Source: an uncultured bacterium (lineage in GTDB: Bacteria; Patescibacteriota; Minisyncoccia; UBA6257; 2-01-FULL-56-20). Taken from it: a stretch of 64,000 nucleotides of DNA. This document shows, in pieces, positions 3,629 to 43,527 of this stretch. Within the stretch, counting starts at the first letter, position 1, and each line of letters begins with the position of its first letter. The notes under the pieces were generated by a model. The model was not told the DNA's origin and searched no databases. It saw only the letters and a program-made list of their open reading frames with translations. The DNA lies in contig OY970382.1 in the NCBI GenBank assembly GCA_963719425.1, forward strand, positions 321,246 to 385,245. Reading direction: 5' to 3'. Both the position numbers and the translations under genes were made by a program.

Positions 3629-4669
3629 ATGACTTCGGCAGCGAAAATTGTTGATGCGACACTTGCAAACCTAAAGCCCCGCCAGAAAGAGGTGCTTCAG
3701 GCCCGTTTTGGCTTGGCCAAAGAGGGTGAGGGGCAGGGGGAAACCCTAGCCGCGATCGGCGATCGGCTGAAGGTAACGCGGGAGCGCGTGCGGCAGATAG
3801 AATCAAGCGGCATCACGCTTGCGAAAGCGAACATTTTGAAGAGTTCTGACGCGGCCGGGTTCCTGGATAAAGTGAAAAAATATCTCGCGACGCGCGGCGG
3901 CGTGGCGAGGAAGCCGGAGGTGCTCCAGTACGCGGCGACGCTTGCGAGGGGCGTGCGCGAAAACCAGCTTGATTTCCTTGCTGCGGTTTCCGATGCCTTT
4001 AAGGCATATCGTGAGGATGATGATTTCATCCCGTTTTATTACTCTGGCGACAAGGAGCTCAAGGAAGCAAAAACTTTTGTGGACGGCTGGGTGAATTTCT
4101 TGAACGCGCATAAGGAAAAAGTGCTTGGTGGTGGGGCGTATCAAACCCAGCTTGCGAGCTTCGTGAAGACAAAGGCGGTTGGCGACACGGTCGCAGAAAA
4201 TTATTTGAGCGTGATAAAGCATATCCACAAGAATCCGTATGGCGACATGGGTCTCCGTGATTGGGCGGAGATCCGGCCGACGACCGTGCGCGACAAGATC
4301 TATCTTGTCCTGAAGAAGCACGGCGAGCCGCTGCACTTTGAGGATATCGCCCGTCATATCAACAAGGTTGGTTTTGACGAACAGGAAGCGCTCGCGCCGA
4401 CGGTGCATAACGAGCTGATCAAAGACGATCGATTCGTTTTGGTCGGGCGAGGCATGTATGGTCTTCGCGAACATGGCTATGAGCCGGGCACCGCGCGCGA
4501 AGTGATCGCAAAGGTGTTGAAAAGTGTGGGCCCACTCCGGCCGACGGACGTTGTGACGCACGTGAACAAACAGCGTTTCTTCAAACCGAATACGATCCTT
4601 ATCAATCTGCAGAATCGTAATTTTTTTGAGCGGCTGCCCGACGGTCGGTACCGCGTCCGCGAAGCATAG
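3629..4669 (+). CDS. Sigma-70 region-4-like HTH protein with C-terminal HARE-HTH domain
   Basis: N-terminus RQKEVLQARFGL...GETLAAIGDRLKVTRERVRQIESSG resembles sigma-70 region 4; C-terminus HFEDIARHIN...DDRFVLVGRGMYGLRE matches the HARE-HTH pattern. Confidence 0.6.
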   Translation: MTSAAKIVDATLANLKPRQKEVLQARFGLAKEGEGQGETLAAIGDRLKVTRERVRQIESSGITLAKANILKSSDAAGFLDKVKKYLATRGGVARKPEVLQYAATLARGVRENQLDFLAAVSDAFKAYREDDDFIPFYYSGDKELKEAKTFVDGWVNFLNAHKEKVLGGGAYQTQLASFVKTKAVGDTVAENYLSVIKHIHKNPYGDMGLRDWAEIRPTTVRDKIYLVLKKHGEPLHFEDIARHINKVGFDEQEALAPTVHNELIKDDRFVLVGRGMYGLREHGYEPGTAREVIAKVLKSVGPLRPTDVVTHVNKQRFFKPNTILINLQNRNFFERLPDGRYRVREA

Positions 4670-4719: not shown

Positions 4720-5406
4720 ATGACCCGGTTCCATCTCCTCACGATTTTCCCTGAAATTTTCGATTCCTATCTCAAGGAATCTTTTTTGAAAAAAGCACAG
4801 GAAAAGAAACTGATTACGATTACGCCGCACAATCTGCGCGATTTCACGAGCGACAAGCATCGGAAGGTAGACGACCGGCCGTTTGGTGGCGGGCCGGGGA
4901 TGGTTCTTAAAGTGGAGCCCATTTACAAAGCGATTCGCGCCATTGTGCAAAAGTCGCGCGTTGCCCCGCGTAAGCGATGGGTCATTTTGTTCTCGCTCCG
5001 CGGAAAGAAGCTTGACGCGAAGGTATCGCGGCGGCTCGCAAAATACGACGAGCTTGTTTTGATCTGCGGCCGCTACGAAGGCGTGGATGAACGGGTGGCG
5101 CGATACGTCGCGGATGAAGAGATCTCAATAGGGGACTATGTGCTCTCCGGCGGCGAACTCCCCGCACTCGTCCTCATGGAATCCGTCTGTCGGTTCATCC
5201 CCGGCTTTTTGGGGAAACAGGAATCGCTTGAGGATTTTAAGGGCTCCTATCCCACATACACCCGCCCGGAGGTTTTTATAGCGAAGAAAAACGGTGCGGT
5301 GAAGAAGAATAGTACGAAAGGAAAAGCGCAAAAGTGGAGTGTGCCGAAAATGCTTCTCTCCGGCGACCACAAAAAGATCGCCGAGTGGCGCCGTGGGAAG
5401 CATTAA
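4720..5406 (+). CDS. trmD: tRNA (guanine37-N1)-methyltransferase
   Basis: TrmD motifs LTIFPE, PFGGGPGMVLK, RYEGVDERV, LLSGDHKKIAEWRR. Confidence 0.9.
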   Translation: MTRFHLLTIFPEIFDSYLKESFLKKAQEKKLITITPHNLRDFTSDKHRKVDDRPFGGGPGMVLKVEPIYKAIRAIVQKSRVAPRKRWVILFSLRGKKLDAKVSRRLAKYDELVLICGRYEGVDERVARYVADEEISIGDYVLSGGELPALVLMESVCRFIPGFLGKQESLEDFKGSYPTYTRPEVFIAKKNGAVKKNSTKGKAQKWSVPKMLLSGDHKKIAEWRRGKH

Positions 5407-5441: not shown

Positions 5442-7217
5442 ATGGATCGGGAAACCAGGATCTGCCAGAATTGCAAATCTTCGTTCGTCATTGCGCCCGA
5501 GGACTTCACGTTCTATGAAAAGATCAAGGTCCCGCCGCCCACATGGTGTCCGGAGTGCCGCATGGCCAGAAAAATGGCCTTTCGCAACGAACGGACGCTT
5601 TACCGACAATCGTGCGCTTTGTGCGGCAGGAATGTTCTTTCAATGTATGCACAGGACACACCGCTTACTGTTTATTGCACGGAGTGCTGGTGGTCCGACA
5701 AGTGGGATCCGCTGAGTTATGGACGAGCCTACAATTTTTCTCAAAATTTCTTTGATCAATTTCGAAGGCTTTTTAATGCCATTCCGCGTGCGAATCTTTA
5801 TCAAACGCTCGTAGTTGATAGTCTTTATTCCAATTATGCTATCAACGTGAAAAATGGCTATATGGTTTTCGGGGGCCATGATTACGAAGATTGCTTATAC
5901 GCCGGACAGTGTAGTTTCGTCAAAGATTCTATTGATGTTTCCTTCAGTAGAAATTCTGAGATGTGTGCTTCATCAATCGATCTGTGGCGTTGCTCAAAAG
6001 TTTTTTTCAGTCGCTACGCCGAAGATTGTTCAGATTCTTATTTTCTCTTTGACTGCCGTAATTGCACCAATTGTTTTGGGTGCGCCAACCTGAGAAATAA
6101 ATCCTATTATATCTTTAATGAACCGTATTCAAAGGATGGATATTTTTCAAAATTAAAAGAGCTGAATATCGGCAGTTTTAAATCTTTAAAAGGGCTGGAG
6201 GGTAGAGTTTATGAATTTTGGTTGAAGTTTCCACGCCATTTCGCCAATATCAGAAATTCCAGAAATTGCATTGGCGATAATATTCATAATTCCAAAGATT
6301 GCTATTATTGTTTTGATGTTTATAAGGATATTGATAACTGCCGATATTCGTTTTTCTTACCCGACAACGGACGAGATTGTTATGATTCAGATCACACTGG
6401 CGTCAATTCAGAACTGATGTATGAGGTCATGAGCACAAGTTACGACGCCAAGGTCATAGCAAGCAATCGTATTTACAGTTGCCATGATATCTACTATTCC
6501 GACGATTGCCATAATTCCCAGAATCTTTTTGGCTGCATCGGTTTAAAGAAAAAGGAATATTGCATTTTGAACAAGCAGTATACCAGAGAGGAATATGAGG
6601 GTCTGGTGCCAAGAATTAAGGATCAAATGATGGCAATTTCTTACACTGATAAAGTTGGGAGGGTTTATAAATTCGGCGAGTTTTTCCCTATTGATTTCAG
6701 CCCGTTTGCTTATAACGAGACCTTGGGTCGGGAATACTTCCCGATAAGTAAGCGAGGAGCGATTGAGCGGGGTTATTCTTGGCGGGAGCCGGCAGCTAAA
6801 AATTATCAAATAACTATTAAGCCAGATCAGTTGCCAGATATTACTAGAGATGCGGCCAATTCAATGATTAATGAAATAATCGGTTGCGACCACAGGGGAG
6901 AATGTGCCGAGCAATGCACCACGGCTTTTCGTATTGTCCAAGAAGAATTGGATTTTTACCGTAAAATGAGCCTGCCTCTGCCCAGACTTTGTCCCAACTG
7001 CAGACATTATGGGCGCCTCAAGCAGCGGAATCCTTTAAAGTTGTGGCACCGAAAATGTACTTGTGCGGGCGCAAAATCAGAAAATGGCGCGTACGAGAAC
7101 TCCGCATCGCATTTCCACAGTTCCAGCCATTGTCCCAATGAGTTTGAAACCACCTACGCCGCGGACCGACCCGAGACCGTCTATTGCGAGCAATGCTACA
7201 ACGCGGAGGTGGTATGA
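5442..7217 (+). CDS. Cysteine-rich Zn-ribbon repeat protein, paralog A1 (family of 4 in window)
   Basis: Track ORF 5334 overlaps trmD; conserved family N-terminus MDRETRICQNC starts at 5442. About 45 Cys, N- and C-terminal CxxC...CxxC modules, repeated CxNCxxCFGCxNLRNKxYC units. Shares termini with ORFs at 7214, 9014 and 40041. Confidence 0.75.
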   Translation: MDRETRICQNCKSSFVIAPEDFTFYEKIKVPPPTWCPECRMARKMAFRNERTLYRQSCALCGRNVLSMYAQDTPLTVYCTECWWSDKWDPLSYGRAYNFSQNFFDQFRRLFNAIPRANLYQTLVVDSLYSNYAINVKNGYMVFGGHDYEDCLYAGQCSFVKDSIDVSFSRNSEMCASSIDLWRCSKVFFSRYAEDCSDSYFLFDCRNCTNCFGCANLRNKSYYIFNEPYSKDGYFSKLKELNIGSFKSLKGLEGRVYEFWLKFPRHFANIRNSRNCIGDNIHNSKDCYYCFDVYKDIDNCRYSFFLPDNGRDCYDSDHTGVNSELMYEVMSTSYDAKVIASNRIYSCHDIYYSDDCHNSQNLFGCIGLKKKEYCILNKQYTREEYEGLVPRIKDQMMAISYTDKVGRVYKFGEFFPIDFSPFAYNETLGREYFPISKRGAIERGYSWREPAAKNYQITIKPDQLPDITRDAANSMINEIIGCDHRGECAEQCTTAFRIVQEELDFYRKMSLPLPRLCPNCRHYGRLKQRNPLKLWHRKCTCAGAKSENGAYENSASHFHSSSHCPNEFETTYAADRPETVYCEQCYNAEVV

Positions 7218-9004
7218 CATTAGCCATGAATACCGAAATCAAAACCTGCCAAAACTGCGAATCCTCGTTCGCGATTGAACCCGAGGATTTTGATTTCTAT
7301 AAACGGATAACCGTCCCGCCGCCGACGTGGTGTCCGGAGTGCAGGATGATTCGCAGGCTGTCGCACAGAAATGAACGCAGCCTCCATCGCCGCATGTGTA
7401 GCGCCCCGGGGCACACGGAGGAAATCATCTCTATTTACGATGCGAGCGACGCTTCTCCCGCATACGACTACGAGTATTGGTGGAGCGATACATGGGATCC
7501 GCTGGCATACGGTGCGCTGTATGATTTTGGAAAAGATTTCTTTTCGCAGTGGCGCGACCTCCGAAATCGCGTGCCGCGTCTTGCTCTTTCCAATTCACGG
7601 GCCACGAACAGTGAGTATTGCAACGTAAACGACAAAAGCAAGGACTGCTATATGATTTCTGCCGCATATGAGAACGAGCACGTTCTCTACTCTAATCGCG
7701 TTTCCTACAGCAAGGATTCGGCAGACTGCTATATCCTTAACAAAGGCGAATTATGCTATGGAAATGTAGCGTGCACTGACTCCTACCGACTTCTTTTTAG
7801 CATACGATCCAAAAACTGCACCAACTCCGCATTTTTGTACGATTGTGATAATTGTCAGGACTGCTTCGGATGCATTAATCTGCGCAACAAGCGCTTCTGC
7901 CTGTTCAACGAGCAACTTACCAAGGAAGAATTTCTCAAGCAATCCAAGCGATTTGATCTGCGGAGTTTTTCAGCAATTGAAAGGGCAGCATCGCGTTTTC
8001 GCGAACTTTCTGCGCGGGCCATCCATAGGCACGCCACTCTTATTTCTACGGTGGATTCCACTGGCGACAATCTCTCTCAATGCAAACATTGCAGGAATTG
8101 TTTTGATTTTGACAGGGCCGAAGAATGTAAATTCTGTAATTGGGGAGGATTTGTCGTTAAAGATACTTATGATGCAAACGGGGTCGTCGACGTTTCGGAG
8201 CTTTTGTACGAAACGTTTGACGAGGTCCGAGGCTCACGCATTCTTTTTTCAAGCGTTGTCTACGACTCGCATGATATTGCCTATTCTATGAATTGCTATA
8301 ATTCCAACAATTTGTTCGGCTGCGTCGGATTGCGGAAGAAACAGTACTGCATATTAAACCGGCAATATTCTAAGGAAGAGTACGAATCCCTCGTCCCCAA
8401 AATCATTTCGCATATGTACACCCAGCCATATCGCGACAGTCGAGGCCTAGTATATACCTACGGAGAGTTTTTCCCTCCCGAATTGTCCGCCTTCGGCTAC
8501 AATGAAACCGTCGCGCATGATTTGGTAAGAATGTCGCAAGAAGAAGCACGGGCAGCGGGATTTCGATGGCGGGAATCTTCCGAGAGAAGCTATACAGTGA
8601 GCATACAAGCCGCGCAACTTCCTGACAGTCTCGACAGGGTGGAAGATTCGATTACCAAAGAGGTAATCGGCTGTAGCCATGGAGGAAAATGTGATGATCA
8701 ATGCACTACTGCGTTTCGCGTTATTCCCGACGAACTTCAATTGTATAGAAATCTAGGCGTGGCTCTTCCAAGGATGTGCTTCAATTGCCGTCACCATGCG
8801 CGCCTTCGCGAGAGGAATCCCTTAAAACTCTGGCGGCGCAAGTGCCGATGTGCAGGCGCAAAGTCAGAAGCTGATATTTATTTGAATACTACTGGCCATT
8901 TCCACGGCGCAGAACATTGTCCCAACGAGTTTGAAACCCCGTATGCTCCTAACCGCCCTGAGATTGTCTATTGCGAGCAGTGCTACCAGGCGGAGGTGGT
9001 ATAA
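7214..9004 (+). CDS. Cysteine-rich Zn-ribbon repeat protein, paralog B1
   Basis: Start ATG overlaps the upstream stop as ATGA (alternative start 7226, MNTEIKTC). CSAPGHTEEIIS motif shared with the copy at 40041; same C-terminal HCPNEFETPYAPNRPEIVYCEQCYQAEVV. Confidence 0.75.
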   Translation: MTLAMNTEIKTCQNCESSFAIEPEDFDFYKRITVPPPTWCPECRMIRRLSHRNERSLHRRMCSAPGHTEEIISIYDASDASPAYDYEYWWSDTWDPLAYGALYDFGKDFFSQWRDLRNRVPRLALSNSRATNSEYCNVNDKSKDCYMISAAYENEHVLYSNRVSYSKDSADCYILNKGELCYGNVACTDSYRLLFSIRSKNCTNSAFLYDCDNCQDCFGCINLRNKRFCLFNEQLTKEEFLKQSKRFDLRSFSAIERAASRFRELSARAIHRHATLISTVDSTGDNLSQCKHCRNCFDFDRAEECKFCNWGGFVVKDTYDANGVVDVSELLYETFDEVRGSRILFSSVVYDSHDIAYSMNCYNSNNLFGCVGLRKKQYCILNRQYSKEEYESLVPKIISHMYTQPYRDSRGLVYTYGEFFPPELSAFGYNETVAHDLVRMSQEEARAAGFRWRESSERSYTVSIQAAQLPDSLDRVEDSITKEVIGCSHGGKCDDQCTTAFRVIPDELQLYRNLGVALPRMCFNCRHHARLRERNPLKLWRRKCRCAGAKSEADIYLNTTGHFHGAEHCPNEFETPYAPNRPEIVYCEQCYQAEVV

Positions 9005-9013
9005 CTAAAAACA

Positions 9014-10792
9014 ATGGGACCGGAGACAAGAATTTGTCAGAACTGTAAGCAGCAATTCACGATCGAGCCGGAGGATTTCGTGTTCTATGAAAAGTTCAAT
9101 GTCCCGCCGCCGACGTGGTGTCCGGAGTGCCGATTCGTAAGACGCCTTACGTTACGGAACGAGCGGAGTTTGTATAAGCGAAAATGCGACCTCTGCGGAC
9201 AGGAAAAAATAATGCAATTTAGTCCCCAGTCGCCCTTCACCGTTTATTGCAAAGAATGTTGGTTGAGCGACCGGTGGGACGCTTCCGCGTATGCGAAAGA
9301 ATATGATTTTTCAAAGCCCTTTTTTGCGCAGTTTTTTGAACTGTTGCGCACTGTACCGCGACTCGGAATCGTCCATCAGGGAACAATTGTAGATAGTCAG
9401 TATGCAAACCGCGTGAGCAATTTAAAAAACTGTTATCTTGTCTACGGCAGTAATTTTGACGAAAACTGCATGTACGGCACATGGTTTAACAATTCAAAAG
9501 ATTCGATGGACGGACTCTCAGTGCAGAAATCGGAACAGTGTTATGAATGCATTGACTGCTTTGAATCACACAAGCTCTTTTACTCTCAAGAATGCACGGC
9601 ATGCAGCAGTTCGTACTTTCTCTTTAACTGCCGCAACTGCGAGAGTTGCTTTGGTTGCACGAATTTGAGAAACAAGAGTTATTGCGTATTTAACAAGCAA
9701 CATACCAAAGAAGAATATCAAAAGATCGTCGCCGGATTCAATCTCGGGAGCCGAACGATGCGTGATGCGCTGAAGCTCAAGTTCCTCTCAGAAAAAACAA
9801 AGTATGTTGTTCCTGCCCTCGTGGAACATCATAGCCAGAACGTATCGGGGAACTGGATAGAGGAATCAAAAAATGTTGCCGAAGGGTTTAGTTGCCGAAA
9901 GGTTGAGGACGGAAAATATCTCTACGGACTTGTAGGGTCCAAGGATGTCATGGATTACTCCTTTTGGGGGCGCGCCACAGAACTGGTCTATGATTCGGTG
10001 AATATCGGCTATCAGTCCTCAAGTATCCGTTTCGGCAATGAGGTATGGGATCAAATAACCGATGCGACGTACGTATTCAACTGCCACAACGCCCATGACC
10101 TTTTTGGATGCGTTGGGTTGAGAGGGAAAGAATACTGCATTTTGAACAAGCAATATTCAAAAACGGATTTTGCATCGCTGTCGTCAAAGATCATTGAACA
10201 GATGAAAACTGTCCCCTATAAGGACGCAACTGGAAAACTCTATTTTTATGGCGAATTTTTCCCTGTTGACTATCACCTTTTTGCTTACAACGAAACGATT
10301 GCGCACGAGTACTTTCCGCTTACCAAAGAGGAAGTGCTGCGACAGGGATATGCATGGAGGGATCCCGAGGATAGAAACTATAATATCACGCTCGCTCCCG
10401 ACGACTTACCTGATCACATAAAAGATGCCGAAAGTACCATCGCAGACCATATCATCGGCTGTGCTCACAAGGGCGCTTGTAATGAGCAGTGCACGACCGC
10501 GTTTCGCATTATCCCCACAGAATTACTCTTTTATAAAGCATATGAGATACCGCTCCCGACGCTCTGCCCAAACTGCAGGCACTATGGGCGATTGAAACAG
10601 CGAAACCCTCTGAAGCTTTGGCACAGGAAATGTCAGTGTGCGGGGACAAAATCGGAAAAGGGTATTTACGCCAATGCCGCTGTTCATCAGCATCAGACGA
10701 GCCACTGCCCCAACGAATTTGAGACCTCCTACGCGCCCGATCGCCCCGAGATCGTCTATTGCGAGCAGTGCTACAACGCGGAGGTGGTGTAA
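9014..10792 (+). CDS. Cysteine-rich Zn-ribbon repeat protein, paralog A2
   Basis: MGPETRICQNCKQQFTIEPEDFVFYEKFNVPPPTWCPECR N-terminus and ...CPNCRHYGRLKQRNPLKLWHRKC...YCEQCYNAEVV C-terminus nearly identical to A1; 9-nt spacer after B1. Confidence 0.8.
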   Translation: MGPETRICQNCKQQFTIEPEDFVFYEKFNVPPPTWCPECRFVRRLTLRNERSLYKRKCDLCGQEKIMQFSPQSPFTVYCKECWLSDRWDASAYAKEYDFSKPFFAQFFELLRTVPRLGIVHQGTIVDSQYANRVSNLKNCYLVYGSNFDENCMYGTWFNNSKDSMDGLSVQKSEQCYECIDCFESHKLFYSQECTACSSSYFLFNCRNCESCFGCTNLRNKSYCVFNKQHTKEEYQKIVAGFNLGSRTMRDALKLKFLSEKTKYVVPALVEHHSQNVSGNWIEESKNVAEGFSCRKVEDGKYLYGLVGSKDVMDYSFWGRATELVYDSVNIGYQSSSIRFGNEVWDQITDATYVFNCHNAHDLFGCVGLRGKEYCILNKQYSKTDFASLSSKIIEQMKTVPYKDATGKLYFYGEFFPVDYHLFAYNETIAHEYFPLTKEEVLRQGYAWRDPEDRNYNITLAPDDLPDHIKDAESTIADHIIGCAHKGACNEQCTTAFRIIPTELLFYKAYEIPLPTLCPNCRHYGRLKQRNPLKLWHRKCQCAGTKSEKGIYANAAVHQHQTSHCPNEFETSYAPDRPEIVYCEQCYNAEVV

Positions 10793-10838
10793 GCGCCGTT
10801 TAATCCTGATTTAACCCTCGCCGTTCTACAATGCGGGA

Positions 10839-12266
10839 ATGGCGTTTTTTCTTCATCCGGCGGACACGGCATTCGGGATCGCACTACTTTTTCTCGCAGG
10901 GGTGTTCATCACGGGCCTTGGATGGCATTTCCTCGCGTTCTTTCTTGCTGCACTTTTAGGCGGCGTCGGGACGATTCTTTGGCGGCGGCAGCTTTGGAAA
11001 GAGTGCATTTTGTTTCTTTGCGCAGCGCTCGTCGGCGCCTTGTATTATCACTTCTATTTTCACTTGCAGGCGTTGGAGACAAACCTGCCCACAGGGCAAG
11101 AGGCATCGCTGCAAGTCGTGATTTCGGACGAGCCGCAGCCAACGGAAAAATATTTGATCATCACCACGGATGCTGCCCCTCCATTTTGGGGGACATTAAA
11201 AATCCTCGCACCACCAGGGAGCAATTTTCAATATGGCGAGTTGCTGCAGGTGAGCGGGGCCATTAGCCCACCAGATACTGAAGGCGGCGATTCCATTGTG
11301 TTTTCGCCGAAAAGCATAACCGTACTCGCGGAGCACCGTGGCTTTTGGCTGCGCGAATGGATGATTAACCTGAAACTCGCCATTCTCCAAAAGTTCAGGG
11401 AGGTGCTGCCAGAAGACCAGGCGGCGCTTTTGGGCGGGATCGCCTTCGGATCAAAAGTGAGCTTCAAGCAGGAACTAAAAAATGCAATGGCGCTCTCGGG
11501 CACAACACACCTTGTCGCCGTCTCCGGTTACAACATCACGATCGTCATTGTCGCCGCAGGTGACCTTTTCAAGCGATTCGCCTCGCGCCGTGCGACGTTT
11601 TTCGCGGCCGTGATCGCGCTTGTACTTTTTATGTTTATGGTGGGCGCTCAAGCGTCTGCGGTACGCGCGGCGATCATGGGATTTTTGGCACTCATTGCGC
11701 GTGAGATAGGGGAGCAATTCAGCATGCGGAATGCCATCGTCTTTACGGCCGCCTTTATGGCACTTCTTGACCCAAGTGTTCTTACCGGAAATATCAGTTT
11801 CATTCTCTCGTTCCTAAGCCTGGCCGGCATCGTGTATCTCGGCCCGCCTCTCCAAAAGCTTTTGCGATACTCGGGTGAGAGTGGTCTCTTTGATTGGAAA
11901 GAAAGTGCGATAACCACTATGTCGGCCCAACTCGCCGTAATGCCGGCCCTTATCAACTCTTTCGGGCGATTTTCCTGCATGGCAATCTTCGCGAACATCC
12001 TTGTCCTTTCCACGGTGCCGCTCACGATGTTCCTCGGGGCGCTCCTCGCGCTTTTCGGATTCGTTTCGCACTACCTCGCGTTTTTCGCCGGGAAACTTGT
12101 CGGGCTGTTTCTTGCTTATCAGCTTTTCGTGATCCGCCTCTTCGCCGCGCTTGCGGTTCCGCTGCCCCTGCCGCTCAACTCCGCCGCCGCAATCGCGCTG
12201 TATTACGTGATACTTTTGATATTTATTTTTTCCTATGGCGCTCATGACCGTTCTCAAAGGATTTAA
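10839..12266 (+). CDS. comEC: ComEC/Rec2 competence protein, membrane channel part (split ComEC)
   Basis: Multi-TM N-terminus, DUF4131-like region and competence-domain motif SGTTHLVAVSGYNITIV. Confidence 0.7.
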   Translation: MAFFLHPADTAFGIALLFLAGVFITGLGWHFLAFFLAALLGGVGTILWRRQLWKECILFLCAALVGALYYHFYFHLQALETNLPTGQEASLQVVISDEPQPTEKYLIITTDAAPPFWGTLKILAPPGSNFQYGELLQVSGAISPPDTEGGDSIVFSPKSITVLAEHRGFWLREWMINLKLAILQKFREVLPEDQAALLGGIAFGSKVSFKQELKNAMALSGTTHLVAVSGYNITIVIVAAGDLFKRFASRRATFFAAVIALVLFMFMVGAQASAVRAAIMGFLALIAREIGEQFSMRNAIVFTAAFMALLDPSVLTGNISFILSFLSLAGIVYLGPPLQKLLRYSGESGLFDWKESAITTMSAQLAVMPALINSFGRFSCMAIFANILVLSTVPLTMFLGALLALFGFVSHYLAFFAGKLVGLFLAYQLFVIRLFAALAVPLPLPLNSAAAIALYYVILLIFIFSYGAHDRSQRI

Positions 12267-13176
12267 TACGCTTGCACTCATCATCGCGACATCGCTTGTT
12301 GCGGTTGATGCGTACGTTTGGTTCGCGATGTGTTCGCAGGGCGGTGTCCAAGAGGTACATGAATATTTTTTGGATGTCGGACAGGGTGACAGCGAGCTTG
12401 TCGTATTCCCCGGTGGCATGAAAATTATGACCGATGCCGGTCCGGCCGCGAGTTCGCCGGCCGCCGTGATCGGCGCGCTAGAGAAGGTGCTGCCGCAGAA
12501 TGACCGCTATATAGACATCGCGATCATTTCGCATCCGGACTCGGACCACTTTGCCGGCTATCTGGACATCTTGGATCGCTACGAGATTGGCGCATTCCTT
12601 TATAATGGCCGTGCCGGCGCGAGTGACGCCTGGCAGCAACTTATGGAAAAGATAGATGCTAAACATATTCCACTTGTCACGCTTGGAGCAGGGGACCATA
12701 TTCATTACGCAACAAATATAATTGACATACTTTCTCCGGATAGCGCGTTCGTTCAGAGTGCGGAGACAAACGACACCAGCTTGGTGGAACTCGTGCGCGC
12801 GGAGCCCGGTAGTGAAAGTGGGCGCAGCTTCCGCACATTGCTCACTGGCGATGCCCCCTTCAACGTGGAGGACTATCTTATAAAGAGAGGCATTGATGTA
12901 CGGGCCGACATTCTGAAGGTGGCCCACCATGGCTCAAAATATGCTTCGGGGAGCGCGTTCCTGCGCGCCGTGAATCCAAAAGCAGCCGTGATCGGCGTCG
13001 GTGCGAAAAACGTTTACGGCCACCCCTCAAAGGAAATGCTCGCGCGGCTTGCGTCGTCAACGCACGCACAGGTCTTCCGCACCGACCTCAATGGCACGGT
13101 AGAGATTTTCTCCGAGGACGGCGCACTAAAAATGATAGAAGAAAAACAAACTGCGTCGCCAAACGGCGGGAAGTGA
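12235..13176 (+). CDS. ComEC C-terminal metallo-beta-lactamase domain protein (separate ORF)
   Basis: MBL-like motifs ISHPDSDHFAGY and KVAHHGSKYAS; overlaps the upstream ComEC ORF by 32 nt in another frame. Confidence 0.65.
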   Translation: MALMTVLKGFNTLALIIATSLVAVDAYVWFAMCSQGGVQEVHEYFLDVGQGDSELVVFPGGMKIMTDAGPAASSPAAVIGALEKVLPQNDRYIDIAIISHPDSDHFAGYLDILDRYEIGAFLYNGRAGASDAWQQLMEKIDAKHIPLVTLGAGDHIHYATNIIDILSPDSAFVQSAETNDTSLVELVRAEPGSESGRSFRTLLTGDAPFNVEDYLIKRGIDVRADILKVAHHGSKYASGSAFLRAVNPKAAVIGVGAKNVYGHPSKEMLARLASSTHAQVFRTDLNGTVEIFSEDGALKMIEEKQTASPNGGK

Positions 13177-37766: not shown

Positions 37767-38872
37767 CGTTTGGGTCCGGCAGGCGCGGTCACAATCCGGA
37801 TTACTTTTTTCTCGCGATCGTTGTCATCCTTGTGGTGTTTGGGCTCGCCATGCTTGCCTCCGCTTCGTCCAATCTCGGGAAAACCCAATTTAACGACACC
37901 TATTACTATCTGAAACATCAGATCCTCTATGGTATTTCGGTCGGGATTGTCGGATTTCTCGTCGGGTATTACGTATATTACGAGCACTGGAAAAAAGTGG
38001 CGTTCATCTTACTGCTCATGAGCTTGGCGGCATTGGTTCTCGTCTTTACGCCGCTCGGCCTTCAGGCAAACAACACGAGCCGTTGGCTCCGGCTTGGTCC
38101 TTTGAGCTTCCAACCGGCGGAGCTCATGAAACTTACGTTCATCATTTACCTTGCGGCCTGGCTTTCCAATCCGAAGCTGAAGCGCGCCACCGACTTTCAG
38201 GCAGGCCTTCTGCCGTTTCTCATCATCTCCGGCATCATTGCGGGACTCCTCATCCTGCAACCGGCGACCAGTACGGTCGCCATCCTCCTTTTTTCGGGAC
38301 TCGCGGTGTACTTTATGAGCGGTGCGCCGCTGCGATACATCCTTCTTATCGCGCTCTGCGCCGTCGTCGCAATCGGGCTTGTGATTTATATCACTCCGTA
38401 TCGCCGCGCGAGGATTCTCGGCTTCCTTGATCAAAGCGCAAATACGCAGGGAACGAATTACCAATTGAATCAATCGCTCATCGCCATTGGCTCGGGGGGG
38501 CTCACGGGGGTGGGCTATGGGCAGTCGGCAACCAAAACAAGCTATCTTCCGACACCGATTGACGATTCCATTTTTGCCGTGGTGGCGGAGGAGCTCGGCT
38601 TCGTGGGCGCGGGCGCGCTTGTGGCGCTTTTCGCGCTCTTTGCCGCTCGTCTCTATTGGCTTGCAAAGAAGACGAGCAATCGCTTCGGCCGCTTACTGCT
38701 TATCGGCTTCGGAACGGCAATCGCGCTCCAGGCATTTGTGAATATGGCGGCGACCTCCGGACTCATTCCGCTCACGGGGGTTCCGTTACCATTCGTAAGC
38801 TACGGCGGCACCGCACTTGCGGTTTTTCTCACTATGAGCGGAATCGCGCTCAGTGTGTCAAAATATACATAA
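37763..38872 (+). CDS. ftsW: SEDS family cell-wall polymerase FtsW/RodA
   Basis: 10-TM profile, conserved PTPIDDSIFAVVAEELGF and GVPLPFVSYGG motifs; next to murG. Confidence 0.85.
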   Translation: MTFGSGRRGHNPDYFFLAIVVILVVFGLAMLASASSNLGKTQFNDTYYYLKHQILYGISVGIVGFLVGYYVYYEHWKKVAFILLLMSLAALVLVFTPLGLQANNTSRWLRLGPLSFQPAELMKLTFIIYLAAWLSNPKLKRATDFQAGLLPFLIISGIIAGLLILQPATSTVAILLFSGLAVYFMSGAPLRYILLIALCAVVAIGLVIYITPYRRARILGFLDQSANTQGTNYQLNQSLIAIGSGGLTGVGYGQSATKTSYLPTPIDDSIFAVVAEELGFVGAGALVALFALFAARLYWLAKKTSNRFGRLLLIGFGTAIALQAFVNMAATSGLIPLTGVPLPFVSYGGTALAVFLTMSGIALSVSKYT

Positions 38873-38876
38873 TGCG

Positions 38877-40010
38877 ATGAATGCTGAAACTTTCCGCGTA
38901 GTGGTGGCGGGCGGGGGAAGCGGGGGACACGTATACCCCACGATCGCGGTGATTGAAGCGCTCAAAAAACGATGCGCCGAGCTCGGAGCGCCGCTTGAGA
39001 TAATCCGCGTGGGTCCGCGGGATGGATACGAACCGCTCTTCGCCGACTGCGGCGTCGCGCTTTCGCCGATTGTAGCCGGCAAGGTCCGACGATATCTATC
39101 ATTAGCGAACTTCGTTGACATTCCTAAATTCTTTATTGGATTTCTGCACGCGCTTTTCAAGCTGTATCTCCTCATGCCCGACGTTATTTTTTCAAAAGGT
39201 GGCACCGGTGCCTTGCCTGTCGTCGTCGCCGGCTGGTTTTATCGCATCCCCATCGCCATCCACGAATCCGACGCGAAGCCGGGTCTTACTAATCTTTTCT
39301 CCGCACGTTTCGCGCGGAGGGTATTTGTGAGCTTCACAAGTGCCACCGAGTATTTCAATCCGCAGAAAACACAAGTGGTCGGGACGCCAATCCGGGAGGA
39401 ACTTCTTGCGGGACGGGTGGCCAAAGAGGTAGCGAAAGAAACGCTCGGCTTTGATCCAAAAAGTCCGCTCACGCTTATTCTTGGTGGCTCACAGGGCTCA
39501 CAACGGATCAATCAATTCATTCTTGAGGGCCTTGTCGCGCTCGTAAAGGAAACCCAGGTGCTCCATCAAACCGGCGTGGCGAATTTGCCGGAGGTTGAGC
39601 AGCTCTCCCGCGCCGCACTCATCGACGAATCGTTCAAAAACCGCTACAAGGCCATGGGATATTTTGGGAAAGACCTTTCACTTGCACTTGCCGCCGCCGA
39701 CCTTGTGGTCGCACGCGCCGGCAGCAACACCATCGCCGAGGTCGCCTCGTTCGGGGTTCCCATGATCCTTATCCCGCTTTCCGATGCGGCCAATGACCAC
39801 CAGAAACTGAACGCTTACGAATTCGCAAAAAACGGCGGCGCGGTCGTAATTGAGGAAGCCAATCTCTTTGAGGGTATCTTTCTCGGGCAACTGAGGGCGA
39901 TTCTGGGCAACGAGGAGTTACGCGCCAAGATGAGTGCCGCCGCAAGCCAGTTTTTTCTCCCCGACGCAGCGGGAAAAATCGCGGAGGAACTGCTGCAATT
40001 GGCGATATAG
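38877..40010 (+). CDS. murG: Undecaprenyl-PP-MurNAc-pentapeptide-UDPGlcNAc GlcNAc transferase
   Basis: G-loop VVAGGGSGGHVYPTIAV, C-terminal GT28 domain; start taken at MNAETFRVV. Confidence 0.85.
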   Translation: MNAETFRVVVAGGGSGGHVYPTIAVIEALKKRCAELGAPLEIIRVGPRDGYEPLFADCGVALSPIVAGKVRRYLSLANFVDIPKFFIGFLHALFKLYLLMPDVIFSKGGTGALPVVVAGWFYRIPIAIHESDAKPGLTNLFSARFARRVFVSFTSATEYFNPQKTQVVGTPIREELLAGRVAKEVAKETLGFDPKSPLTLILGGSQGSQRINQFILEGLVALVKETQVLHQTGVANLPEVEQLSRAALIDESFKNRYKAMGYFGKDLSLALAAADLVVARAGSNTIAEVASFGVPMILIPLSDAANDHQKLNAYEFAKNGGAVVIEEANLFEGIFLGQLRAILGNEELRAKMSAAASQFFLPDAAGKIAEELLQLAI

Positions 40011-40040: not shown

Positions 40041-41828
40041 ATGAATGCTGAAACCAAAACCTGCGTAAATTGCAAGAACCAGTTCGTGATAGAACCGGAG
40101 GATTTTGATTTCTACAAGAAAATGGCTGTCCCGCCGCCGACGTTTTGTCCAGATTGTAGGCTGCAACGGCGGTTAGCATACAGGAATGAGCGGGGACTCT
40201 CAAAGAGGAAGTGTAATGCTCCGGGGCACAGCGAGGATATTATTTCGGCATATTCCGATCCGAAACTCGTGGTCTATGACGAAAGATACTGGTGGAGCGA
40301 TGCATGGGACGCCGGTCAGTACGGAAGGGCATACGATTTTACGAAGCCATTCTTTCTACAATTCCGGGAATTAATGGAACAAACCCCACACATCGCACTG
40401 GTAGACAGCAAATCGACCAATACAAGCTACTGCAATTATACCGTAGAGCACAAAAACTGTTATCTCGTGAGTGCAGGATGGAATAATGAAGACTGCTATT
40501 ACGGCAACAGAATTTCATTCTGCAAAGATACGCTGGATTCATATGTGTGCCACCGGACAGAATTCAGCTATGAGAATGTGTATTGCAAGGAATCGTATCA
40601 ACTATTTTGGAGCCGAAACTCGGAAAACTGCAACAACTCCTATTTTCTCTATGATTGCCGCGGCTGTTCCCACTGCGCGTGTTGCGTAGGATTGCGCAAC
40701 AAGCAATATTATATTTTTAACCAACCCTACACGAAAGAGGAATATGTCAAGAAAATCGCGGAGATCAATTTGGGGAACCGCGCGTCACTTTCACGATTAC
40801 AAGAGAAACTTGAATCAATGCGCCTCGCAACCATACATCGGTACGCGCAGGTATACAAATCACAAAACGTAATTGGAGATAATATTGAAGAAGCAAAGAA
40901 TTGCTACTGGTGCTTTGATGTGGCGGGCAACGCGGAAAATTCCAAGTACTGCAATTGGGCAACCTACGGGATGAAAGACTGTTACGATTCAGGGCCTGGA
41001 GCAGGCGGCCAGTCAGAGCTCACGTACGAAGGGGTAAGCATCGGGGTCAACAACGCCCGTTGCGCCTTCGGCGCGGCAATATGGTACTCGCATGATATCC
41101 TCTATAGTTACAACTGCCATTCGTCCCAATATCTCTTCGGCTGCGTTTCGCTTCGGAACAAAAAGTATTGTATTTTAAACAAACAATATTCCAAAGAAGA
41201 ATATGAAGCACTCCTGCCGCGCATACGGAAGCATATGGAAAATATGCCATATGTAGATAAAAATGGAAGGCAATATCGATACGGAGAACTCTTTCCTATT
41301 GAACTTTCGCCCTTCGCGTACAATGAAACTGTAGCGCAAGAATTTTTCCCTCTTACCGAAAAAGAGAGTGCAGAAGAAAATTATCCATGGCGTACAGAAG
41401 GGGCTCGTTCGTACGCACCCACCATGCGTGCGGCTGATCTTCCCGACTCCATACAATCCGTGAGCGACGATATCTCAAAGGAAATTATTGAATGCGAACA
41501 CGCCAACGCGTGCAACGACGGATGCGCCTCGGCGTTCAAAATTATTCCACAGGAGCTTATGTTCTACCGAAAATTCAACCTCCCGCTGCCACGGTTATGC
41601 TTCAATTGCCGCCATGCGAATCGGCTGCGACAAAGGAATCCCACGAAGCTCTGGCATCGCATGTGTGCGTGCGCGGGCAAAGCGTCAGAAAATGGCCGGT
41701 ATGCTAACAGTGCACCGCATGGCCACCATGGTGTGAACCATTGTCAGAACGAATTCGAAACTACCTACACTCCCGACCGCCCTGAAATCGTCTATTGCGA
41801 GCAGTGCTACCAAGCAGAAATCGTTTAG
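40041..41828 (+). CDS. Cysteine-rich Zn-ribbon repeat protein, paralog B2
   Basis: MNAETKTCVNCKNQFVIEPEDFDFYKKMAVPPPTFCPDCR...CNAPGHSEDIIS (B subtype) and C-terminal CQNEFETTYTPDRPEIVYCEQCYQAEIV; full-length homolog of 5442/7214/9014. Confidence 0.8.
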   Translation: MNAETKTCVNCKNQFVIEPEDFDFYKKMAVPPPTFCPDCRLQRRLAYRNERGLSKRKCNAPGHSEDIISAYSDPKLVVYDERYWWSDAWDAGQYGRAYDFTKPFFLQFRELMEQTPHIALVDSKSTNTSYCNYTVEHKNCYLVSAGWNNEDCYYGNRISFCKDTLDSYVCHRTEFSYENVYCKESYQLFWSRNSENCNNSYFLYDCRGCSHCACCVGLRNKQYYIFNQPYTKEEYVKKIAEINLGNRASLSRLQEKLESMRLATIHRYAQVYKSQNVIGDNIEEAKNCYWCFDVAGNAENSKYCNWATYGMKDCYDSGPGAGGQSELTYEGVSIGVNNARCAFGAAIWYSHDILYSYNCHSSQYLFGCVSLRNKKYCILNKQYSKEEYEALLPRIRKHMENMPYVDKNGRQYRYGELFPIELSPFAYNETVAQEFFPLTEKESAEENYPWRTEGARSYAPTMRAADLPDSIQSVSDDISKEIIECEHANACNDGCASAFKIIPQELMFYRKFNLPLPRLCFNCRHANRLRQRNPTKLWHRMCACAGKASENGRYANSAPHGHHGVNHCQNEFETTYTPDRPEIVYCEQCYQAEIV

Positions 41829-42001: not shown

Positions 42002-42057
42002 TACAGAATTTGAGGTAAGATAGGGGAGACATGGTGGGAACAAAGGAGGAAAAGGAC

Positions 42058-43527
42058 ATGGCGGTCCGCGTGAGGATGGCGCCAAGCCCTACAGGGCCTT
42101 TGCACATTGGGACGGCGCGGACGGCGCTTTTCAATTGGCTCTTCGCCCGCAAGCACGGGGGAGTGTTCGTGATGCGCGTGGAGGACACGGACAAGGAACG
42201 CTCGGAGAAAAAATATGAAGACGAAATTCTGGAAGGCCTTGCGTGGCTTGGTTTGGATTGGGACGAGGGCCCGCTTGCGGACGGCGGTCGCCTGCCGGTA
42301 GCGGACGAAAAGGGGCCGTATGGCCCGTATCGGCAGAGCGCGCGCACGGAAATCTATAAAAAGTATCTGCAGGAGCTTCTGGACAAGGGCGAAGCGTACT
42401 ACTGCTATTGCACCAAAGAAGAACTTGAAGCGCAGCGCGAGGCGATGCTCGCGCAAGGGCTCCCGCCGAAATACAACGGGCGGTGCAGGAATTTAAAGAC
42501 GCCGCCCACAGGAAAAAGCCCGGAGGTGATCCGTTTCAGAATTCCCGAAACGAACGTGACGTTTGATGATCTTATCCGCGGAAAAGTTGCATTTGATACT
42601 TCGCTCTTTGGCGACATCGTGATCGCGAAAGACCTTGAAAATCCACTTTACAACTTCGCGGTCGTGGTGGACGACGAGCTTATGAAAATCAGCCACGTGA
42701 TTCGTGGCGAGGATCATCTTTCAAACACGCCGAAGCAAATTCTCATGCAACGCGCGCTCGGATTCGGCGAACCGCGCTATGCCCACATTCCACTCATCCT
42801 GAACCCCGACCGCAGCAAAATGTCAAAGCGTTTCGCCGACGCGGCGCTTTTGCAATACCGCGAGAAGGGTTACCTGCCGGAAGCACTTTTCAACTTTCTC
42901 ACCCTTCTCGGCTGGCATCCCAAAGACAACCGCGAAGTGCTTTCCAAAAAAGAATTGGTGAAGGAATTTGATCTCGCACGAGTGCAGCAAGCCGGCGCCG
43001 TGTTCAATCAAGAAAAACTGGACTGGCTGAACCGTGAACACCTGAAGAAGATGAGTAGCAAAAAGACCGCGGACGAGATACGCGCATTGCAACTGTTTGC
43101 ATCCGAGAACCTGCCCGAACCCGGGGAAGATGTTCTTATGAAAATTATTGACGTGGAGCGCAGCCGTGCGAACACGCTCCGCGACTTCGTAACCCTTGGA
43201 CGGTTCCTTCTTATCCTGCCGGAGTACGAAAAGGAACTCTTGATCTGGAAAGAAAGTTCTGTAAAAGAGGCCGCTGCCGCGCTCGCGGTGATGGAGGAAG
43301 AGCTCGAAAAGATCAATGCGCAGGAATTCAACCGTGAAACGTTATCGGCGGCCGTCACGCACACCATCACGGCAATAGATGGAAAGAGGGGATCGGTCAT
43401 GTGGCCTCTCCGCGTAGCGGTTTCCGGGCAGAGGGCCTCGCCCGATCCCCTGGAAATCATGGAGGTGTTGGGAAAGAAAGAATCGCTTCGCCGGATCGCC
43501 CTCGCACGCCAGAAACTAGCTTCTTAA
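42058..43527 (+). CDS. gltX: Glutamate--tRNA ligase
   Basis: VRVRMAPSPTGPLHIGTARTALFNW (HIGH) and KMSKR motifs; start chosen at MAVRVR. Confidence 0.9.
   Translation: MAVRVRMAPSPTGPLHIGTARTALFNWLFARKHGGVFVMRVEDTDKERSEKKYEDEILEGLAWLGLDWDEGPLADGGRLPVADEKGPYGPYRQSARTEIYKKYLQELLDKGEAYYCYCTKEELEAQREAMLAQGLPPKYNGRCRNLKTPPTGKSPEVIRFRIPETNVTFDDLIRGKVAFDTSLFGDIVIAKDLENPLYNFAVVVDDELMKISHVIRGEDHLSNTPKQILMQRALGFGEPRYAHIPLILNPDRSKMSKRFADAALLQYREKGYLPEALFNFLTLLGWHPKDNREVLSKKELVKEFDLARVQQAGAVFNQEKLDWLNREHLKKMSSKKTADEIRALQLFASENLPEPGEDVLMKIIDVERSRANTLRDFVTLGRFLLILPEYEKELLIWKESSVKEAAAALAVMEEELEKINAQEFNRETLSAAVTHTITAIDGKRGSVMWPLRVAVSGQRASPDPLEIMEVLGKKESLRRIALARQKLAS

Follow-up and report, generated by a model that had tools for sequence, protein, structure and literature searches.

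A large unnamed family of cysteine-rich, finger-capped proteins in Patescibacteria and its link to a VirD4/TrwB-like ATPase

The probable treble-clef fingers zf_Tbcl and zf_Tbcl_2 are domains of ~40 residues and of unknown function. Type IV coupling proteins are ATPases whose clients include relaxases, the Dot/Icm adaptors IcmS/IcmW/LvgA, and the effectors of type IV secretion systems (T4SS). The beetle antifreeze protein TmAFP (1EZG) is a β-helix of 12-residue coils with the repeat TCTxSxNCxxAx (PMC8038014). These systems, together with the 2×[4Fe-4S] ferredoxins, are compared here with four paralogous genes for cysteine-rich proteins of ~590 residues that are present in 64,000 nucleotides of DNA from an uncultured bacterium of the Patescibacteriota (assembly GCA_963719425.1, contig OY970382.1, positions 321,246 to 385,245 of the forward strand). 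This whole stretch is termed the window, and coordinates given without another contig or locus are positions within it. Sequences of the family are already public as “hypothetical proteins”, and the family has no name, profile model, or structure.

Each end of a family protein consists of a zf_Tbcl-like finger (CxxC-x24-CxxC, with the signature F.I...FY...P..C..CR) and a zf_Tbcl_2-like finger. The two families differ from the present one in length, ~40 as against ~590 residues; the scores of most window copies fall short of the curated cut-offs, one subtype (type B) has lost ligands of the second finger, and the last finger carries a 22-residue insert. The feature shared with TmAFP is the tandem 12-residue repeat with a small residue at every third position, which is found in two central regions, M1 and M2. 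In contrast to TmAFP, the family lacks the TxT ice-binding face, a secretion signal, sequence similarity, and a structural match to any solved β-helix. Its setting is cytoplasmic, where disulfides are unlikely, the predicted solenoid lies inside a 590-residue multidomain protein, and the predicted local distance difference test (pLDDT) score of M1 is only 59-72. As with coupling-protein clients, the family genes are located directly downstream of a VirD4/TrwB-like ATPase, and the proteins possess a conserved, positively charged C-terminal module; nevertheless, they contain no relaxase, BID, or other known client domain, and no virB4 genes are nearby. The ATPase differs from coupling proteins in being an orphan without a membrane domain of its own, preceded by separate genes for DUF8128 and a membrane protein of ~170 residues. 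The CxxCxxCxxC motif of the family, unlike that of the 2×[4Fe-4S] ferredoxins, is without CP, has no second canonical motif, and is degenerate in M2.

Four paralogues and their domain architecture

A first-pass annotation, made from the sequence alone, had described four full-length paralogues in the window, and this description holds. A1 (5442-7217, 591 residues, type A), B1 (type B, 7214-9004 with 596 residues or 7226-9004 with 592, depending on the start codon), A2 (9014-10792, 592 residues, type A), and B2 (40041-41828, 595 residues, type B) are all encoded on the + strand with zero internal stops. They are exactly the four full-length copies that tblastn with all four proteins detects in the whole window. 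Pairwise protein identity is 44-50% (48-49% between A1 and the other three). A1, in which the CxxC-x17-CxxC of the second finger is intact, is present as an exact protein in NCBI/ENA on an 887,956-bp contig. The cysteine counts are 36, 34, 34, and 35 in the copies at 5442, 7214, 9014, and 40041, or ~6% of residues, and the earlier figure of ~40-45 per copy was too high. A collapsed repeat or other assembly artefact, which had already been argued against, is excluded by the level of protein identity, by nucleotide similarity that is patchy (at most 66-88%, in short terminal stretches only), and by the closer relatives that each copy has in other genomes.

The AlphaFold2 models of A2 and B1 (mean pLDDT 84.3 and 83.9; predicted template-modelling score, pTM, 0.86 for both) reveal the same architecture. 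The order is a double finger, M1, helices, M2, a conserved acidic domain (residues 386-480), and a second double finger; pLDDT exceeds 90 at the ends and over residues 370-592, in contrast to M1. In A2, all of whose segments are on the + strand, the N-terminal double finger (9014-9298; pLDDT 89-94) comprises the zf_Tbcl-like ZnF1 with C8, C11, C36, and C39, a basic helix, and the zf_Tbcl_2-like ZnF2 with C58, C61, C79, and C82. M1 (9386-9709) is made up of some nine repeats of 12 residues, in which Cys/Ser occur at register positions 1, 4, 7, and 10, and terminates with C206-x2-C209-x2-C212-x2-C215. M2 (9809-10168) is a degenerate homologue of M1 that keeps C357, C366, and C375 and ends with LFGCVGLRxKEYCILNKQY. 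The acidic α/β domain (10169-10453; pLDDT >90; net charge -5.7) carries the motifs YGEFFP...F.YNET...W, in which G413, P417, N426, and W448 are invariant; it has no detectable relatives and no PDB match. The C-terminal double finger (10454-10789) comprises ZnF3 (C483/C493/C518/C521), a basic helix (+5.5), and ZnF4 (C540/C565/C583/C586), whose 22-residue insert holds C542, H558, and H560.

Conservation of Cys and His was computed over 206 family members. The cysteines of ZnF1 are 97-100% conserved, those of ZnF3 89-99%, and those of ZnF4 99-100%, with ~72% for the three residues of the ZnF4 insert. The values for the M1 cysteines C206, C209, C212, and C215 are 83-97%, and those for the three M2 cysteines 85-97%. 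In ZnF2, C58 is 82% conserved, while C61, C79, and C82 are each present in 53% (110/206). The latter three residues define the two subtypes recognized in the first-pass annotation, and the split proves to be family-wide: both type A copies of the window have them and neither type B copy does, three of the four ZnF2 cysteines being gone in type B.

All the motifs quoted for the N-terminus, the C-terminus, and the interior occur in the proteins. Residues 1-95 and 478-592 are homologous (hhalign with alignment slices, probability 99.4%, E 1.7e-21), which bears out the internal duplication proposed for the terminal modules; the two are, however, direct repeats of one module and not mirror images in sequence, as had been proposed. 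M1 (120-232) and M2 (262-385) are likewise homologous (99.5%, E 1e-22), and the two forms of repeat unit described between the termini belong to these two halves.

No full-length Pfam or NCBIfam model was found, finger matches cover less than 30% of the protein, and the PDB contains no fold match for the whole. No characterized family reaches beyond the terminal fingers; the first-pass annotation had likewise recognized no named family. zf_Tbcl (PF13451) matches A1 (residues 5-45) with 21.9 bits (E 1.7e-4) and B2 with 16.7 bits, the gathering score being 24 bits, and it matches 8 of 76 family members at E≤1, with a best E of 1.7e-4. Its C-terminal counterpart is recognized solely through the hhalign alignment to the N-terminal copy. 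zf_Tbcl_2 (PF23477/TIGR04272, CxxC-x17-CxxC) matches A2 residues 51-85 with 22.9/21.8 bits (cut-offs 27/36) and 34 of the 76 members, with a best E of 5.5e-9; a precomputed PF23477 match exists for some relatives. Other than the fingers, no family matched consistently, and Med15_N gave weak matches in 13 of the 76 (best E 0.0027).

The isoelectric points (pI) of the proteins are 6.1-7.1. The terminal finger modules are basic (+2.1 at the N-terminus, +5.5 at the C-terminus), with basic helices that come after the second knuckle of ZnF1 and of ZnF3, and M2 and the 386-480 domain are acidic. A signal peptide had not been apparent by eye, and neither a signal peptide nor a membrane helix was found in the window proteins, which are soluble and cytoplasmic. 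The finger sites are predicted to bind zinc.

The 12-residue period is evident from the autocorrelation at lag 12, which reaches 0.329 in M1, where harmonics appear at 24 and 36, and 0.171 in M2; in neither case did any of 1000 shuffles reach the observed value. Cys/Ser occupancy at positions 1, 4, 7, and 10 of the register is 53%, 70%, 44%, and 34%, and hydrophobic residues are located at positions 5 and 6. M1 probably folds as a narrow solenoid of 12-residue coils with a Cys/Ser ladder. Because Cys/Ser sit at every third position of the repeat, C206-x2-C209-x2-C212-x2-C215 would be a coil of this ladder with Cys at every rung. The resemblance of this spacing to a ferredoxin-like cluster, suggested in the first-pass annotation, is not supported: no Fe-S family, Fer4-type included, matches any of the 76 members at E≤1, the motif is in the 12-residue register, and the M2 equivalents of C209 and C212 are non-Cys. 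The multidomain architecture, confidently modelled, is new, and the repeat is a candidate for a new class of Cys-ladder solenoid.

Family extent and age of the paralogues

The family is large and is found so far only in Patescibacteria (the Candidate Phyla Radiation, CPR), mainly in Parcubacteria/Paceibacteria. A word-indexed search returned at least 7,038 clusters at 90% identity, and an exhaustive profile search returned 5,019 clusters at 50% identity, 2,129 of them at E≤1e-30; among the best 150 of the 5,019, 134 are 520-612 residues long and cover the profile end to end. At least 585 stretches with relatives are present in species-representative genomes, and all of the loci shown (80/80) are from Patescibacteria, mostly Paceibacteria lineages. 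All named matches are from this group as well (Lipton-, Jorgensen-, Staskawicz-, Portnoy-, and Parcubacteria), in agreement with the CPR origin considered at the outset. They are annotated as “hypothetical protein”, save one “putative phage protein” and one “Zn ribbon nucleic-acid-binding protein”. A literature search with the family, its Pfam/TIGR accessions, and a Cys-rich Parcubacteria family as subjects gave no relevant paper; in the literature and libraries searched, there is no description of the architecture of the whole protein, of a cytoplasmic Cys-ladder repeat of 12 residues, or of the link to orphan coupling ATPases.

A phage origin finds no support. There are no relatives on the 2.9 million viral contigs of IMG/VR, the best PHROGs match has an E of 0.024, and the BFVD matches are finger-level only, ~40-70 residues in length, to phage zinc-ribbon and HNH proteins. 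PADLOC gives 0 families for the four copies at E≤1.

The family genes were examined in 82 fetched loci of 22 kb, each anchored on a family gene. These contain 220 copies, 1-12 per locus, and every copy has the orientation of its anchor gene. Two overlapping loci (L004 and L030) form the largest array, with 16 copies head-to-tail in 28.6 kb (JALLOO010000001.1, 412-28967) and one gap of ~1.5 kb; arrays of up to 16 copies are found in other orders. Paceibacteria genomes are ~0.7-1 Mb and have little spare room. These small genomes nonetheless keep from 4 to at least 16 copies of a 1.8-kb gene.

The four copies in one window had suggested that the system expands in this lineage through duplication. 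Such recent, lineage-specific duplication is rejected, since 98% of 166 copies from multi-copy loci are closer to a relative from another genome than to any copy of their own array. The median identity is 60% to the best relative in another genome versus 46% (at most 58%) within the own array. The nearest relatives elsewhere are 57% identical to A1, 90% to B1, 71% to A2, and 68% to B2, the closest relatives of B2 being 62-68% identical and all in other genomes. Because the copies resemble relatives in other genomes more than their array neighbours, the four are ancient paralogues. Reciprocal-best-hit orthogroups chain into one large component, and recurring adjacent pairs of clusters are seen in the arrays. 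The paralogues are under purifying selection: the orthologue ratio of non-synonymous to synonymous substitution (dN/dS) is 0.079 for A2 and 0.091 for B1, and 0.046-0.123 for neighbouring housekeeping genes.

Recent variation concerns which copies occupy the trmD-comEC site. Three are present in the window, two in a close relative (L007), and one, A2, in another (L083). The L007 copies are an A2-like gene that is just 59% identical and a B1 orthologue (89-90%), while the A2 orthologue in L083 is 94% identical. When the window is compared with L007, nucleotide homology runs on for ~300 nt inside the 5' end of the first gene and for ~240 nt inside its 3' end. For the A2 orthologues (window 9014-10792 and L083 10001-11779), synonymous divergence is 0.76 in the N-terminal finger module, 0.64 in the C-terminal one, and 0.25-0.28 in the middle. 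Both patterns are compatible with recombination or gene conversion through the conserved ends.

Link to a VirD4/TrwB-like ATPase and possible roles

The non-family open reading frames (ORFs) of the 82 loci were clustered to rank the neighbours of the family. A VirD4/TrwB-like ATPase is the commonest; its 43 genes lie in 25/82 loci, at a median distance of 367 bp. It matches TrwB_AAD_bind, T4SS-DNA_transf, TraG-D_C, and DUF87 in Pfam, VirD4-like and TraD models in NCBIfam, and TrwB (1e9r, E 2.3e-4) in the PDB. It has no membrane domain of its own; DUF8128 and a ~170-residue membrane protein, for both of which PDB and profile searches gave no informative matches, precede it. A second, longer ATPase paralogue terminates in a zf_Tbcl_2 finger (E 2.5e-15 to 2.9e-15), a finger type that the family proteins also carry.

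Seven further loci were picked by the ATPase alone, as a safeguard against ascertainment bias. A family member lies downstream in 7/7, within ~250 bp in five, at ~0.3 kb in L088 and at ~0.8 kb in L084. In 6/7 the order is SecD, SecF, a Sigma70_r4/HARE-HTH protein, DUF8128, a membrane protein of 155-172 residues, the ATPase, and then 3-5 family members, DUF8128 being a PF26449 match in 5/6 of these array-bearing loci. The SecD/SecF and sigma/HARE genes precede the DUF8128/VirD4-like/array cluster in 13/82 family loci and in 6/7 ATPase-anchored loci, and the SecDF-sigma/HARE synteny block is conserved across Paceibacteria. The family is usually housed in an operon-like SecD-SecF-sigma/HARE-DUF8128-~170-residue-ATPase-array cluster, often with the finger-bearing second ATPase in addition. 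The ATPase is 80-90% identical across Paceibacteria, versus 50-69% for SecD (to the window SecD, non-sister loci), and because of this identity across lineages it behaves as a core gene. CutA1 (PF03091), a divalent-ion tolerance protein, is encoded in or beside arrays in 9/82 family loci and 2/7 ATPase-anchored loci (among them L001 4534-4839, L002 3601-3909, L085 16731-17036, and L088 9611-9913). We also note that in one genome (L089, 7707-7997) a 96-residue GIY-YIG ORF lies between the ~155-residue membrane protein and the VirD4-like ATPase.

In the window, the SecDF and sigma/HARE context is kept but TrmD occupies the usual place of the ATPase module; an ATPase orthologue, P0394, is encoded on the same 887,956-bp contig, outside the window. 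In the close relative SPRUCE 501, one contig carries both the trmD site (L007) and, ~70 kb from it, an ATPase cluster that includes six copies of the family (L068). The order in L084 is DUF8128, a 156-residue protein, the ATPase, a single family member, and the finger-bearing ATPase, with insertion sequence (IS) elements and a PemK toxin gene interspersed. L084 (contig_54891, 208633-230123) is from a close relative of the window genome, and the genes that interrupt its cluster are IS481-type and rve transposase genes and PemK. Insertions of this type may explain the separation of the ATPase module and the trmD-site array in this lineage.

A survey of 2,918 Patescibacteria genomes found 5,713 VirD4 homologues, only 148 of them near virB4 (PMC12102498). 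Exaptation of the VirD4 homologues was raised there as a possibility, and the present family was not mentioned (PMC12102498). The position downstream of the ATPase gives a testable handle on a question raised in the literature, the role of the thousands of coupling-protein homologues in Patescibacteria that are unlinked to virB4 (PMC12102498).

The synteny suggests a functional coupling of the family to the ATPase, and we tentatively favour, as a possibility well short of even chances, that the family proteins are clients, either adaptors or cargo, of a DUF8128/VirD4-like machine. A co-expressed set of paralogues would serve the membrane-anchored orphan ATPase; the conserved basic finger modules would be the common handle, docking onto the ATPase or onto nucleic acid that it handles, and the specificity of the individual paralogue would come from the solenoid and linker, which vary more. 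Beyond synteny, the main hint for the client role is the zf_Tbcl_2 finger common to the family and the second ATPase. Several points weigh against it. Core genes that are unrelated but retain their synteny could equally produce such adjacency, and the loci are not phylogenetically independent, all sharing the SecDF-sigma/HARE context. The 64-kb window contains no VirD4-like ATPase, and physical linkage is therefore dispensable. A canonical coupling protein has a VirB4 channel and a relaxase as partners, and Pfam matches to VirB4 or relaxases are absent from the genes listed for the seven ATPase-anchored loci. Tightly folded zinc proteins, moreover, would be unusual secretion cargo.

A more specific proposal, which we hold to be doubtful, is that the arrays are the client set of an unrecognized Paceibacteria membrane machine and that the solenoids are the first cytoplasmic 12-residue-coil β-helices, with a Cys-lined lumen that maybe holds metal. 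The machine would consist of DUF8128, the ~170-residue membrane protein, and one or two orphan VirD4-like ATPases, with no VirB4 channel and no relaxase. If true, a new macromolecule-handling system would stand at the core of the biology of ultra-small, host-dependent bacteria, and the thousands of “orphan” coupling proteins in Patescibacteria would be explained.

An alternative that we consider rather unlikely is that the proteins bind nucleic acid autonomously, be it as DNA/RNA chaperones, as regulators, or in the handling of incoming DNA. A clamp would be formed by the two basic treble-clef modules, and the adjacency of the ATPase and comEC would reflect a shared substrate. The basic helices after the second knuckles of ZnF1 and ZnF3, the net charges of +2.1 and +5.5, and the annotation of one homologue as a Zn ribbon nucleic-acid-binding protein are consistent with this, as are the facts that the ATPase belongs to a family of DNA-binding coupling proteins and that comEC adjoins the array in the window. 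The structural matches, to phage zinc-ribbon and HNH proteins, point the same way but are only finger-level, so that the fold evidence is confined to the fingers. Furthermore, the overall pI of 6.1-7.1 is near neutral to acidic, M2 and the regions designated L being acidic, comEC is adjacent in only 2/82 loci, and 4-16 ancient, non-redundant paralogues are hard to reconcile with generic binding.

It is improbable, though the solenoid repeats, the purifying selection on the copies, and the tight same-strand arrays of distinct ancient paralogues would fit, that the proteins build a hetero-oligomeric assembly. This would be a cytoskeletal or surface fibre of stacked solenoids with the paralogues as its major and minor parts, possibly exported or assembled by the ATPase/DUF8128. 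The proteins have no signal peptide or membrane anchor, the pTM of 0.86 points to a compact monomer in which the ends of the solenoid are capped and not open, and the number of copies ranges from 1 to 16 per locus, array membership differing between close relatives.

A role in metal handling or redox chemistry (buffering of Zn/Cu, metal storage, or electron transfer through Fe-S) has still slimmer prospects. The ~6% Cys, the conserved CxxCxxCxxC, and the CutA1 genes in or beside the arrays (9/82 and 2/7 loci) would suit it. However, Fer4 and other Fe-S Pfam matches are found in 0/76 members, and the spacing is not CxxCxxCxxxCP but matches a 12-residue coil with an i, i+3 ladder. M2 is without two of the four Cys, most of the conserved cysteines are in classical four-ligand finger sites, and the strict 590-residue architecture under purifying selection exceeds the needs of a metal sponge. 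Finally, a conflict or defence system whose diversified paralogues sense or attack phage or host is very improbable: the multi-copy family with its variable central region, the array turnover between close relatives, the “putative phage protein” label of one homologue, and the IS elements and PemK toxin beside the cluster in one relative are outweighed by the lack of a PADLOC match, the absence from 2.9 million viral contigs, single-finger matches only in BFVD, an orthologue dN/dS of 0.08-0.09 like that of housekeeping neighbours, and ancient, widely conserved paralogues in a context of core genes.

Start sites and neighbourhood in the window

The ATGA noted earlier at the junction of A1 and B1 is present at 7214-7217, where the first ATG of B1 overlaps the A1 stop; a second ATG follows at 7226. 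Translation from ATG 7226 begins with MNTEIKTC, the same N-terminus as in the other copies and in the 89%-identical orthologue, and the gene caller chose the equivalent start in a relative. Because this start fits the N-termini of the homologues, translational coupling of A1 and B1 by overlap, as had been inferred from the ATGA, is uncertain, the alternative being an 8-nt gap. The conserved codons for AEVV give rise to a GGAGG that is 4 nt upstream of ATG 7214 and 16 nt upstream of ATG 7226 (7205-7228); the A2 start at 9014 is likewise preceded by this GGAGG, at a distance of 17 nt. The genes of the trmD-comEC array overlap or are separated by ≤9 nt. A consensus scan placed no terminator-like sites in the intergenic gaps of the array and a terminator-like hairpin with a T-run at 10819-10844 (+ strand), just 3' of the array and overlapping the comEC start.

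The flanks of the array agree with the first-pass annotation. SecD, SecF, a 346-residue protein with Sigma70_r4 and HARE-HTH domains (3629-4669), and TrmD (4720-5406) are upstream, and ComEC (10839-12266), followed by a separate metallo-beta-lactamase ORF (12235-13176), is downstream. comEC is located beside family genes in just 2/82 loci. ComEC looks split, in that the Competence-domain ORF and the metallo-beta-lactamase ORF overlap by 32 nt, and the same split is found in L083. B2 is a lone copy between MurG (38853-40010) and GltX (42031-43527). A tRNA-Tyr (GTA) at 932-1017 is the sole tRNA and the sole Rfam match of the 64-kb window.

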